From Gammaproteobacteria bacterium (lineage in GTDB: Bacteria; Pseudomonadota; Gammaproteobacteria; JAKDMP01): a DNA stretch of 64,000 bases. The stretch lies in contig JALUYA010000002.1 of NCBI GenBank assembly GCA_027018875.1, forward strand, positions 3,386 to 67,385, in the 5' to 3' direction. This document shows, in pieces, positions 3,329-26,863 of this stretch. The number at the start of each line of letters is the position of its first letter. Position 1 is the stretch's first letter. The notes beneath the pieces were generated by a model. It was not told the DNA's origin, made no database searches, and was given only the letters and a program-made list of their open reading frames with translations. Both the position numbers and the translations under genes were made by a program.

Positions 3329-3393
3329 GTTTCACTGCTCCTGTTGAACATCAAATTTTAACATATGCTTCGACTTCCAGGCTGAGTGGAAGT

Positions 3394-22784: not shown

Positions 22785-23660
22785 ATGAAAATTCTTCGTG
22801 GCGTCGCCTGGTTGTCATTGCTCGCCCTCGTCCTGGCCGCGGCGACGGCGGTCGCACCGGGTCTCCCCCTTGGCTTCCCGCCACGGTTTATTTTCCTTGG
22901 TCTGGTTGCCTTCGGCGTGGGTGGCATGGCTCCGCGTGAGTCGAGCGGAGCCTGGGGGTGGATGATCCTGGTGCCCATGTGGGGCCTGTATGGAGTTGCG
23001 GCTGTCGCCGGCTGGCTACAGTCGCATGCGTTGTCGCTTGGAGTCTATCCTTTAGTCGCCAGCGTGGGGATGGCGGCGGGGTGGGTGGCCCTGGGAAGCA
23101 TTCATGCCGGGTGGGAGCACAGGCTCCTCGCGAGTGCCCTGGCCGCCTTGGCGATCGGTGGATTAGCGGTCCTTGCCGGGGTACCGGTCCGGGGGGAGTC
23201 ACGGTCGTCATATTACCCCCCCGCCTTCATGTTGCCGCGGCTCGGGGCCGGGATGGTGTCATCCCTTGCACTGCGGGGCCGGCCGGTGGTGCTTTCATTC
23301 TGGGCCAGTTGGTGTCCACCTTGCCGCGCGGAATTGCCCCGGCTCGAGGAGATCTACCGCCGCTACCATGCCCACGTTCGCTTCTTCGCCGTCGATGTGG
23401 CCACCGGGGGAGAGACCCGCACACGGGCTCGGACCTTTTTGCGGCGTCACGGGATCACCATTCCCGCGGTCTGGGATGGGTCGGGACGACTGGCACGAAT
23501 TTTTCGTACCCGGCGGGTGGTACCGGTATTGGTTCTTCTGCGGCCCGACGGCCAGGTGATCTTCGAGCATTACGGCTATCCACCCGACGGCTCTAGCCTG
23601 CGGCAACTGGGCGCGTACCTCAAGCCCTGGCTGCGGATCTCGGCAAGGCCCGAAGGCTAG
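22785..23660 (+). CDS. TlpA-family thiol-disulfide oxidoreductase with N-terminal membrane domain
   Basis: FWASWCPPCRAELP preceded by several hydrophobic segments. Confidence 0.8.
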   Translation: MKILRGVAWLSLLALVLAAATAVAPGLPLGFPPRFIFLGLVAFGVGGMAPRESSGAWGWMILVPMWGLYGVAAVAGWLQSHALSLGVYPLVASVGMAAGWVALGSIHAGWEHRLLASALAALAIGGLAVLAGVPVRGESRSSYYPPAFMLPRLGAGMVSSLALRGRPVVLSFWASWCPPCRAELPRLEEIYRRYHAHVRFFAVDVATGGETRTRARTFLRRHGITIPAVWDGSGRLARIFRTRRVVPVLVLLRPDGQVIFEHYGYPPDGSSLRQLGAYLKPWLRISARPEG

Positions 23661-23677
23661 CCCGAGGCTTAATGGGT

Positions 23678-25234
23678 TCAGTAAAATTCGTATTCGAGGC
23701 GCAATACCAGGGTGGTGCCGGCGGCGGCCTGGCTGGTGCCGAAAAGCACGAGCGCCGCGTAGCGCAGGCTTTTCCCCGGGCCGGTCGCGATGCGCCCGGT
23801 GAGTCCGGGGCCGATCAGTTGGCGGGCGTTTCCCCGGGCACCGACTTTTCCTGCCGGCTGCCCGTAGGCTTCCAATAGGGGAGAGAGGTCTTGCCGCCAG
23901 CGGTAAAGCAGGCGGGCACGGTATTCCAGTTCCACCCCTGGTTCGGCGTTATGGCCGTATTGGCGCGAACCGATCAGGTTCAGCAACACGGTAAAACGGC
24001 CGATATCCCTGCCGAGTAGCGGACCGAACTTGGCCTCGTACGGGGTATCGGCAAAGTGCGGGATTTCGATTTCGGTGAGCAGTCCGACGTCCAGCCAGGA
24101 CCGGCCTTGGGGCGTTAACTGCACTCGGTTTTCCCATTCAAATTCTTCGAGCTTGAATGGGCCTCCATAGCGCTGTGCGCCGGCGATGTAAAACTCGCTG
24201 AACCAGCGGTTGCCGAGGCCCCGTCCGAAACCCAGCTTGAATGCTCTGCGGTCGTCGCTCGAATTCTTGCCATTCCAACCGGTGTAGGCCCGGGCCTCGA
24301 TTTCGTTCTCACCGGGTGATACGGTGGGGGCATAGACGATAAAATCCTCCGCGCGTGCCGCAGGAGCGGAGACCAGGCCGAGGCCGACGAGTAGGAGTAT
24401 CGGGGCCGCCTCGGCTGCCACGCCGGGAAAACGCGGGCGGGCGGAACGTACGAGCATGAGGCCGGCGATGATGCTGAAGCTCGCAATCCATGCCAGCACC
24501 TGCATGAGCGAAGGCGCCGGCGTGTAGCCGGCCAGCGCGCCAAGGCTTCGACCGGCAAGGCTGTTGCCGGAGAGGATTCGCTCGCTGTTCCAGACCCGTT
24601 CGATCAGCGCGGGGAGGTACCCCATCTGAACGAGAAGTTCGACTCCCTGGGCGATCATGCCGGCGGCGATGAAAAGAATCAGGATGGCGCTTACCCGGAA
24701 CAGGCTTTTCATGGGGATGCGTGACAAGCCCGCGAACAACATCAAGCCGGTGGCGGCGCTGGCGGCAAGGCCGAGCACGCCCCCGACGAGAAGCGCCATG
24801 TGCTCGGTGCCGCTCGCGACGATGCCGTAGAGGAACAACGCGGTCTCCGAGCCTTCACGCAGCACCGCGAGGGTGGTTACGGTAATGAGAACGGCAAGCG
24901 ATTCCCTGCCGGCCAGCACGTCCGAGCCCAGAGTTTTGAGCTTTCCCGCCAAGTGGAGCCCTTGTTTGGCCATCCATAGGTTGTGCCCGGCAAGCATCAA
25001 CCCTGCGGCGAATAGAATCCCGACGGAGAAAATCTCCTGACCGCTGCCGCCGGCAAATTGGGAAATCTCTCCGATACCGGCAGCGACGGCGATGGCTCCG
25101 CCCGCCCCGAGCACCACTCCGAGTGTAATCCAGCGGCCGCGATGCCGCAGGCCCTTGACGGCGGCAGCGACGATGCCGATGACCAGAGCCGCCTCGAGGA
25201 TTTCGCGAAAGACGATGATGAAGCTGCCGATCAT
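23678..25234 (-). CDS. FTR1-family iron permease fused to a C-terminal putative beta-barrel
   Basis: REILE and REGSE (RExxE) motifs in a multi-TM N-half; hydrophilic C-domain ending LRLEYEFY. Confidence 0.85.
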   Translation of the reverse strand: MIGSFIIVFREILEAALVIGIVAAAVKGLRHRGRWITLGVVLGAGGAIAVAAGIGEISQFAGGSGQEIFSVGILFAAGLMLAGHNLWMAKQGLHLAGKLKTLGSDVLAGRESLAVLITVTTLAVLREGSETALFLYGIVASGTEHMALLVGGVLGLAASAATGLMLFAGLSRIPMKSLFRVSAILILFIAAGMIAQGVELLVQMGYLPALIERVWNSERILSGNSLAGRSLGALAGYTPAPSLMQVLAWIASFSIIAGLMLVRSARPRFPGVAAEAAPILLLVGLGLVSAPAARAEDFIVYAPTVSPGENEIEARAYTGWNGKNSSDDRRAFKLGFGRGLGNRWFSEFYIAGAQRYGGPFKLEEFEWENRVQLTPQGRSWLDVGLLTEIEIPHFADTPYEAKFGPLLGRDIGRFTVLLNLIGSRQYGHNAEPGVELEYRARLLYRWRQDLSPLLEAYGQPAGKVGARGNARQLIGPGLTGRIATGPGKSLRYAALVLFGTSQAAAGTTLVLRLEYEFY

Positions 25235-25605
25235 GAATGATTCTCTCCGCCGGTCTTGCCGGCGAGCGCCTTGCGGGTTGCGATGATCAGTCCCCGGGCG
25301 GGGGGGTTGAAGTCATCGAAAATCGGATATTCTCCGGGTTCGAGCGGGCCGATCCAAACCGTGATCGTCGCGCCTGGCGGCAGGATTTTCTCGCGATTCA
25401 GGGCATAGCTTTCAAATTCCGCCGGACGGGTGCGGGGGTTGCGAATCCGCAGCCGGATCCGGGTGCCCGCGGGAACCCGAAGTGAAGCAGGGTGAAACCC
25501 CTGGGTACGAATTTCGAGTGCATAGGTGGGGACTTCTCCAGTCTGCGCGGGAAACGCGGCGGAAAGTCCGAGGAGCAGGGCAAGGCCGGGCAACAATACC
25601 TTCAT
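25231..25605 (-). CDS. cupredoxin-domain periplasmic protein (FtrB/EfeO-Cup-like)
   Basis: Signal peptide; FHPASLRVPAG, AEFESYALNREK, LEPGEYPIFDDF; overlaps the FTR1 start. Confidence 0.85.
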   Translation of the reverse strand: MKVLLPGLALLLGLSAAFPAQTGEVPTYALEIRTQGFHPASLRVPAGTRIRLRIRNPRTRPAEFESYALNREKILPPGATITVWIGPLEPGEYPIFDDFNPPARGLIIATRKALAGKTGGENHS

Positions 25606-25629
25606 GGAAAGAGGGGTAGTTAATTTATT

Positions 25630-25648
25630 GCAAATGATAACGATTTGA
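25630..25648. promoter_or_regulatory. putative Fur box
   Basis: GCAAATGATAACGATTTGA, 12/19 match to GATAATGATAATCATTATC, directly upstream of the iron-uptake pair. Confidence 0.6.
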
Positions 25649-25963
25649 ATATATAAAAACAACTACTACTCTCTCGGCCCCTCATCATCGAACTTGTGAT
25701 GCTCGGTTCAGTCGGTTGCCGGCCTGGTTTTTACTTCGTATCGGCGCCTGAAAGATTTCCCCGGCGAATAAATTACGGCACCTGTTCTTTTCATACCGTT
25801 AAGGGGTAACAAGATCCGCGCCACAATGGGAAGGGCCCGTAGTTATGCGAATTTTTTGGAGTGGTGCGAAGATTCGAGTCTTCGAAGCGATTCCCGGTAT
25901 CGGGAAGGCCGGTGGATTACGAAATAGGGTTTTCCGGGCTGGTTTTATAAGTGAATTTGGTCT

Positions 25964-26863
25964 TTAGTGCCGGGAGGCCGTGTCACAGGAGTTCCCGTGG
26001 CCCCCGGTTTCGAGTTGAATGGCCGCGTGCCCAATGTCGAAGCGCTCATGCAGATTTCGGTCGATCTCGCGTAACAGGGCGTCATCGAGCTTCCCGTCGG
26101 GCTTGACCAAGTGTGCCGTGAGCGCGGTCTCGGTGGTGCTCGTGGCCCAGACATGCAGATGGTGTACGCCATCCACCCCCGGCAGGGTACACAGGTAGTT
26201 TTCCACTGCCCGCGTGTCGATACCGCCGGGAACGGCATCCAGGCTTAGATTGAAAGATTCACGCAGCAAGCCCCAGGTACTCCACAGGATGGCGAGCACA
26301 ATGACCAGGCTTAGCGCCGGATCCAGCCAGTTCCAGCCGGTGACGAGGATCCCGACACCGGCAAACACCACCCCCAGGGATACCGCGGCATCGGCGGCCA
26401 TGTGCAGGAAGGCGCCACGCAGGTTGAGGTCGTGTTTCTGGCCCTTCATGAACAGCATTGCGGTGAAGGAGTTGCCGACAACGGCGATGGCGGCCACCGC
26501 AATCACAAGGTTTTCTTCGACTCGTACCGGGGCCAGGATATGGACGATCCCGGCGTAGGCTAGGGCGCCTGAGACCAGGATCAGCAGCAATGCATTGGTG
26601 AGTGAGGCGAGAATGGTGGCGCGCCGGAACCCATAGGTACGCCGGGGTGTGGCCGGGCGCCGGGCAAGCCACATCGCGCCGCCCGCCAGTACCAGGCTCA
26701 GGATGTCCGAGAGGTTGTGTCCGGCATCGGCCAGCAGGGCGGTGGAGTTGCCAATGAATCCGGCCAGGGCTTCCCCGGCGACGATCAGGACATTGAGTCC
26801 GATCGCCAGCAGAAAGATTCGTGTCGATTGTTTGCCGGAGATATGTGAATGGGCGCCGGACAT
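25964..26863 (-). CDS. cation diffusion facilitator (CzcD/ZitB-like)
   Basis: ALLADAGHNLSD, NLRGAFLHMAAD, VHHLHVWA. Confidence 0.92.
   Translation of the reverse strand: MSGAHSHISGKQSTRIFLLAIGLNVLIVAGEALAGFIGNSTALLADAGHNLSDILSLVLAGGAMWLARRPATPRRTYGFRRATILASLTNALLLILVSGALAYAGIVHILAPVRVEENLVIAVAAIAVVGNSFTAMLFMKGQKHDLNLRGAFLHMAADAAVSLGVVFAGVGILVTGWNWLDPALSLVIVLAILWSTWGLLRESFNLSLDAVPGGIDTRAVENYLCTLPGVDGVHHLHVWATSTTETALTAHLVKPDGKLDDALLREIDRNLHERFDIGHAAIQLETGGHGNSCDTASRH

Follow-up and report, generated by a model that had tools for sequence, protein, structure and literature searches.

An iron permease gene joined in frame to a predicted outer-membrane barrel: a candidate two-membrane polyprotein in a gammaproteobacterium

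How a single reading frame could supply one protein to the inner membrane and another to the outer membrane is the question raised by a gene in a 64,000-nucleotide stretch of DNA (the window; positions 3,386 to 67,385 of contig JALUYA010000002.1, assembly GCA_027018875.1) from a gammaproteobacterium of the GTDB lineage JAKDMP01. The gene, designated here ftrC::barrel, lies on the minus strand at 23678-25234 and encodes 518 amino acids (aa) without an internal stop. Taken from sequence and structural models, this one frame contains a seven-helix permease with a cytoplasmic C-terminus, an eighth hydrophobic segment resembling a signal peptide, and a 12-stranded barrel with an acidic lumen. The account favored here, with considerable if incomplete confidence, is that signal peptidase I (SPase I) cuts the chain between residues 295 and 296 (24350/24349, minus strand), that the barrel assembly machinery (BAM) inserts the freed barrel, and that the product is the polyprotein of a Fur-controlled, Ftr-type iron uptake unit.

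Permease, linker and barrel in one frame

A preliminary description of the locus, made from the DNA letters, had read it as one 518-aa frame beginning with an FTR1 permease, and both statements hold: no stop or frameshift is present at the junction, and the Pfam FTR1 model matches residues 1-260 (E-value 3e-25). One sequencing-run contig covers the locus without differences, although it is possibly the source of the window DNA and hence not independent. An assembly or frameshift artifact was dropped as an explanation because the same fusion recurs in 54 other proteins and in the closed genome of Acidihalobacter aeolianus. The permease part (residues 1-262; 24449-25234, minus strand) has seven transmembrane (TM) segments and the two RExxE motifs noted earlier, REILE at 25193-25207 and REGSE at 24845-24859 (minus strand). 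Its loops 1, 3, 5, and 7 are rich in lysine and arginine and loops 2 and 4 are not, which places the end of TM7 in the cytoplasm; yeast Ftr1 is described as N-out/C-in (accessible text of PMC11817551). Since TM7 ends in the cytoplasm, a barrel encoded behind it needs re-export.

The segment that follows (24350-24448, minus strand; RSARPRFPGVAA-EAAPILLLVGLGLVSA-PAARA, with EDF directly after the predicted cut) has the parts of a Sec/SPase I-type signal, namely a basic n-region (residues 263-274), a hydrophobic h-region (275-290), and the c-region PAARA. Signal features were judged by simple rules together with conservation. A basic stretch and a hydrophobic core are present in 88/88 fused proteins scored, and a site of the A-x-A type in 83/88 (loose rule, six positions). 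In a strict column count over 72 full-length fused rows, alanine fills position -3 in 86% and position -1 in 96%, and linker columns 263-290 are only 29-34% conserved in these rows. By these measures of sequence conservation, selection maintains the linker as a signal peptide and acts strongly on the alanines at -3 and -1. A lipoprotein signal and a twin-arginine translocation (Tat) signal were considered and rejected; because a lipobox was seen in only 3/88 fused proteins and a Tat-like motif in 1/88, the Sec/SPase I route is preferred. Both LepB (signal peptidase I) and Fur are encoded in this genome.

The last 223 aa (residues 296-518; 23681-24349, minus strand) gave no Pfam and no NCBIfam matches. 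The earlier proposal that they form a barrel is borne out by an AlphaFold2 model built on 120 sequences, which has 12 strands behind a 14-residue leader (24308-24349, minus strand) with a predicted local distance difference test (pLDDT) of 96.4 and a predicted template modeling score (pTM) of 0.90. The even strand number, the C-terminal aromatic beta-signal (LEYEFY, within the protein end LRLEYEFY) and structural matches that are outer-membrane barrels agree with an outer-membrane barrel, and the last residue is F or Y in 63/72 fused rows. The closest structures are Pput2725 (COG4313, PDB 4RL8; Z 21.5, root-mean-square deviation 2.4, 214 residues aligned) and FapF (PDB 5O65; Z 21.3), to which identity is 8-11%, and two alignments searched by sequence against solved structures returned no match. 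A CopB/PcoB-like identity was rejected on a Z of only 12.6, far under the COG4313 and FapF matches. PF13557 does not match the window protein, matches weakly in 3/120 relatives, and is found in 24% of one Atlas neighbor cluster. The 12 strands and N-terminal lumen plug are features shared with the COG4313/SphA/FapF barrels, whereas the conserved acidic lumen positions and the iron-uptake context set this barrel apart. At 15 positions, at least 60% of the family has an acidic residue, and many of these positions form i, i+2 strand pairs of the ExE kind (e.g., E14/16/18, E71/73, E93/95, and E219/221), a pattern that suggests a cation-attracting lumen, with side-chain orientation taken from the alternation and not from coordinates.

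The initial 14 residues in the predicted mature barrel align to the lumen plug of Pput2725, in which residues 1-14 plug the lumen from the periplasmic side (accessible text of PMC4493636). This modeled plug fits a free barrel N-terminus, as does the way the barrel follows the h-region without any periplasmic spacer; without a spacer, the outer membrane would be out of reach of the uncut protein. The full-length model (pTM 0.49) consists of seven helices, a linker with pLDDT below 50, and a separate barrel. An uncut fusion, in which the barrel, tethered by the eighth helix to the inner membrane, would be a trans-envelope or periplasmic domain, would suit the public databases, which label the full-length chain merely "FTR1 family protein", and would suit the indirect nature of the evidence for cleavage. 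Such an arrangement is nevertheless scarcely credible: no spacer able to cross the periplasm is present, the alanines at -3 and -1 are under strong selection, the beta-signal is intact, split forms are common, and the model has no packing between permease and barrel. The polyprotein put forward in the preliminary description, in which the linker restarts export and SPase I releases the barrel, is supported instead by the barrel fold, the C-in permease, the conserved cut site, and split forms that carry a signal peptide of their own.

Distribution of fused and split forms

A protein search with residues 296-518 in a size window of 284-907 aa returned 55 matches including the query, at 26-82% identity, every one with an FTR1 domain and all but two 513-532 aa long, and the fusion is present in the closed genome of the cultured Acidihalobacter aeolianus (WP_070073219.1). 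When the size window was set to 122-391 aa, 13 stand-alone barrel forms were found, and 12 of these carry an N-terminal signal peptide whose end falls at the homologous site. A profile search gave 1644 representatives, of which the best 150 comprised 37 FTR1+barrel proteins and 110 barrels alone. The preliminary description had called for a comparison of fused and split forms, and both occur among 80 genome loci (28 fused, 32 split, and 20 without FTR1 in view). Among 400 genomes of the phylum, 70 have a match and nine have a fused-length frame, all nine in one family; within the family of the window, 7/8 other genomes match (three fused, two split, and two cut by contig ends).

A barrel tree (FastTree, 134 rows, unrooted, with long branches; seven loci were excluded because they were duplicates, false hits, or broken genes) requires at least 14 changes between fused and unfused states. 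Two split same-family relatives nest within the fused clade; in these the permease retains its basic tail and the barrel has a new ATGA-coupled start, and from the sequences the split reads as secondary fission. Since these relatives re-split the gene with ATGA coupling, the two halves work apart. No description of an FTR1-barrel fusion or of the barrel family was found in the literature searched, in which the reach into subscription papers was small.

Comparable and degraded arrangements were also seen. In the same genome (G000:C9:13864-16311; L226:1419-3812), a CopA-type multicopper oxidase is fused in frame to a CopB outer-membrane barrel, giving 798 aa from the first Met, with a cupredoxin-like gene upstream. 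This fusion serves as a natural control: by eye it has no second signal peptide, as expected because the CopA partner is already exported. In L158:1570-2880 and proteins P0219, P0224, and P0234, FTR1 is fused via a signal-peptide-like linker to the iron-binding protein FtrA/P19, whose mature domain begins near residue 290-310; a permease-signal-cargo design of the same kind here carries a periplasmic cargo. P0221 and P0222 carry P19 and cupredoxin on one chain, on short contigs that are possibly misassembled, and P0221 has a second signal-like segment ahead of the cupredoxin. A barrel gene lying downstream of FTR1 is broken by an in-frame stop at L097:1417-2247 and L201:4833-5663, seen in one genome in two copies and on a Hydrogenophaga plasmid. 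Large replicons of Pseudoalteromonas and Alteromonas carry barrel homologs with 28-33% identity (matches H3-H15 from a plasmid collection), which are annotated as hypothetical or left unannotated.

Iron uptake context and the cupredoxin partner

The gene directly upstream (25231-25605, minus strand) is, as described before, a cupredoxin gene; it encodes an FtrB-type periplasmic protein of 124 aa with a signal peptide (Cupredoxin_1, E-value 2e-25). Its stop codon overlaps the start of the fused gene as ATGA (25231-25234), and the Shine-Dalgarno (SD) sequence of the fused gene lies at 25243-25248 (-6.6 kcal/mol), both on the minus strand. The Fur-like box claimed upstream of the operon was found at 25630-25648 (no strand assigned), although its 12/19 consensus bases are weak when taken alone (1689 such sites in the genome). 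Boxes matching the Fur consensus at 13/19 or better stand upstream of 77% of 111 related cassettes versus 4.8% of shuffles.

In same-family relatives, the polyferredoxin FtrD and the P19 protein FtrA directly follow the fused gene (FtrA in L011, L012, and L014), giving the order B, C::barrel, D, A. Because these relatives carry the full ftrB-ftrC::barrel-ftrD-ftrA operon, the window has a reduced Ftr system. This genome, which is 95% complete, yielded no PF10634 (FtrA/P19), only a 26% partial match to FtrD elsewhere, no DyP peroxidase (EfeB), and no convincing FeoB; it encodes two TonB-dependent receptors. The earlier statement that no oxidase or EfeB gene adjoins the locus is thus correct as to what is present, but the lack is a loss in this genome, as the relatives keep FtrD and FtrA behind the gene. 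The flanking genes, a convergent ResA/TlpA-like thioredoxin gene with a long hydrophobic N-terminal part (22785-23660, plus strand) and an upstream CDF cation-efflux gene (25964-26863, minus strand), are not regular neighbors in related loci.

Two known systems offer close comparisons. The FtrABCD system (Brucella, Bordetella, and Burkholderia; accessible text of PMC11966278) is matched by the FtrC-type permease with two RExxE motifs, by an FtrB directly upstream with equivalents of E84/E86/E93 and D118, and by the FtrD and FtrA that follow in same-family relatives. It differs from the present locus in that the permease here is fused to an outer-membrane barrel, the order is B-C::barrel-D-A, FtrA and FtrD were not detected, and H121 is replaced by Asn. 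The EfeUOB system likewise pairs an FTR1-family permease with a cupredoxin-containing periplasmic partner; however, the window proteins fall under the EfeU and EfeO cut-offs, a lone 124-aa cupredoxin takes the place of full-length EfeO, and no DyP peroxidase was found.

An outer-membrane Ftr component has already been published, namely FtrP of the Fur-regulated FtrAPBCD operon of Rubrivivax gelatinosus, which is alike in including an outer-membrane protein (accessible text of PMC7415376). Among 301 genomes of a related family, 19 have a P19 match, and in nine of these loci the next gene encodes an OprB-like porin (four Pfam-confirmed). The L223 locus has the order A-P-B-C-D, with a separate 490-aa OprB-family porin at the P position that has no profile similarity to the window barrel (hhalign probability 0.2%). 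The barrel was therefore ruled out as FtrP by proxy, with FtrP identified by gene order and not from the R. gelatinosus sequence. At L013:7790-8887, an OprB-family porin gene lies directly downstream of a fused gene, so that this locus has both kinds of outer-membrane partner.

The cupredoxin is the more constant companion of the barrel, occurring in 71/80 barrel loci, including 14/20 without FTR1 in view. Reordered cassettes (FTR1-cupredoxin-barrel or cupredoxin-barrel-FTR1) were seen in L067, L082, L085, L087, and L161, and these, together with the 14/80 loci in which cupredoxin and barrel occur without FTR1 in view, make the link of the barrel to the cupredoxin tighter than its link to the permease. 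The window protein has the equivalents of E84/E86/E93 at the spacing E, E+2, E+9; E44 and E53 are invariant in 96 rows. The equivalent of D118 is kept and that of H121 is Asn in the window and its clade; in FtrB, the putative copper ligands D118/H121 vary between clusters (accessible text of PMC11966278).

A model of the barrel in complex with this cupredoxin scored 0.79 against 0.01 for the best control; the mark used for this score was reached by 116/157 solved and 2/215 mismatched pairs, counts that are rough here because of custom alignments. The runs share at least 97% of contacts, with a partner pLDDT of at least 87. On the barrel, the interface comprises the short turns at 80-83, 115-120, 150-153, and 186-194, residues 11-14, and the C-terminal residue, and on the cupredoxin it includes the invariant E44, R52, and E53. 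One of these barrel turns holds a conserved PQG at 80-82. By general barrel topology, the short-turn face is the periplasmic one. As no solved relative of the barrel was found by sequence, recall of a known complex is unlikely, and the modeling supports, without showing, binding of the barrel to the cupredoxin.

In the proposed mechanism, SecYEG would insert the permease, the eighth hydrophobic segment would restart export, and LepB would cut after A295; the freed 25-kDa barrel would then cross the periplasm to BAM, and the permease would retain the spent eighth helix. Fe2+ would pass through the acidic barrel, and the FtrB cupredoxin, docked at the periplasmic mouth, would take it up and hand it to FtrC. 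The channel appears to be a hitherto undescribed port of entry, handing iron on to the neighboring periplasmic protein. It is very unlikely, though a little less so than an uncut chain, that the polyprotein is correct and the cargo is something other than free Fe2+, namely some different divalent metal or else a small chelate. Some related loci do lie near copper or metal-efflux genes, the COG4313/SphA/FapF structural neighbors carry hydrophobic molecules or peptides, and the cupredoxin lacks its His ligand; yet both RExxE motifs are kept in 66/72 fused rows, Fur-like boxes are enriched upstream of the cassettes, same-family relatives have FtrA and FtrD next to the gene, and no convincing FeoB was found in the genome.

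Candidate internal starts, proposed release of the barrel and wider meaning

Several points weigh against a processed polyprotein for ferrous iron. The cut at 295/296 is a predicted one, and a conserved A-x-A would be equally expected if the barrel arose from an internal start. A candidate for such a start is the in-frame ATG of M260 at the end of TM7 (24455-24457, minus strand), where RNA folding is weak; among 565 near-certain starts of this genome, 21% likewise lack an SD. At the end of TM7, 18/48 fused loci versus 0/109 unfused FTR1 genes have an SD at least as strong as -8 kcal/mol. The identity of the metal is read from family and context, and the authors of the Pput2725 study judged passage of hydrophilic molecules unlikely (accessible text of PMC4493636). 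The oxidation step is unaccounted for because FtrA, FtrD, and EfeB were not found and the cupredoxin has no H121 equivalent.

The preliminary description saw no clear internal SD or start. This holds for the SD (-1.7 kcal/mol, i.e., none) but not for the start, as M260 stands 36 codons ahead of the cut in RNA folded as weakly as that of true starts (-5.7 kcal/mol); at the homologous codon of other clades a strong SD is present. A scan of 23500-26000 for sigma-70-like internal promoters gave one match, on the opposite strand (0.5 expected). A Met at the end of TM7 is shared by fused (31/48) and unfused (71/109) FTR1 genes and thus predates the fusion. A nested gene, in which the working barrel would come mostly from M260 as a pre-protein with a 36-residue signal peptide and the read-through copy would be secondary, cut off, or degraded, draws its support from the codons just ahead of that Met. 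A G-G-x-x motif precedes the position in 27/48 fused versus 2/109 unfused genes. Outside the clade of the window, GGA or GGG encodes the first Gly in 17/20 GGxM loci versus a 25% background, and in 0/4 loci where Met has become Thr, and the SD sites of other clades are weakly folded (-2.3 to -7.9 kcal/mol), as is the window's M260. Synonymous randomization, locus by locus, placed only 8/48 fused loci beyond the 5% tail. Because kin are not independent, the support amounts to about three to four clades.

For the window, such a nested gene is unlikely. M260 has no SD here, and in the eight other loci of the clade (two identical) strong RNA folding (-11.9 to -16.7 kcal/mol) buries the ATG, and the SD is no better than -5.5 kcal/mol. 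The Met, or any start, has been lost in several fused clades: the linker lacks an ATG in 11/49 fused loci, in 18 no start reaches an SD of -4 kcal/mol or better, and in L127 it contains no start codon whatsoever. Since no stop codon ends the permease part, translation yields a full-length precursor that needs processing in any case. An SD-less internal start may operate in this genome. The sequences nonetheless indicate that several lineages must use the polyprotein route and that this one likely does, with most or all of the barrel in the window's clade probably coming from the polyprotein, and that a nested start was apparently added in other lineages. In some of those clades, the nested start would make extra pre-barrel. 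The fixed 1:1 output of inner- and outer-membrane products proposed earlier is therefore not general.

Bacterial polyproteins are rare. In the cytochrome b-c1 precursor FbcH of Bradyrhizobium japonicum, a polytopic membrane protein with an internal signal peptide is cleaved into two proteins, both of which remain in the inner membrane in one complex. The features of that case, a single frame, an internal n/h/c signal, and conserved small residues at -3/-1, are all present in the fused gene, but here the second product must reach the outer membrane via BAM. No bacterial polyprotein with products going to different membranes was found in the accessible portion of the literature searched.

The locus is an Ftr system in a novel form with an unusual biogenesis. 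If the cut is confirmed, then SecYEG, signal peptidase I, and BAM work sequentially on one chain, and the "FTR1 family" labels of annotation pipelines have masked an outer-membrane protein. Acidihalobacter aeolianus, as a cultured carrier with a closed genome (WP_070073219.1), makes the fusion directly testable. For Ftr-type systems, the barrel is a candidate route by which free ferrous iron gets through the outer membrane: an acidic channel dedicated to this task, independent of TonB and predicted to hand the iron to FtrB. With confidence evenly divided, many Proteobacteria may make a two-membrane polyprotein that yields an iron permease and an acidic 12-stranded Fe2+ channel handing iron to a docked cupredoxin, with the ratio of the two tuned by gain and loss of a ribosome-binding site in the Gly-Gly codons of the last permease helix and the same design carrying FtrA elsewhere.

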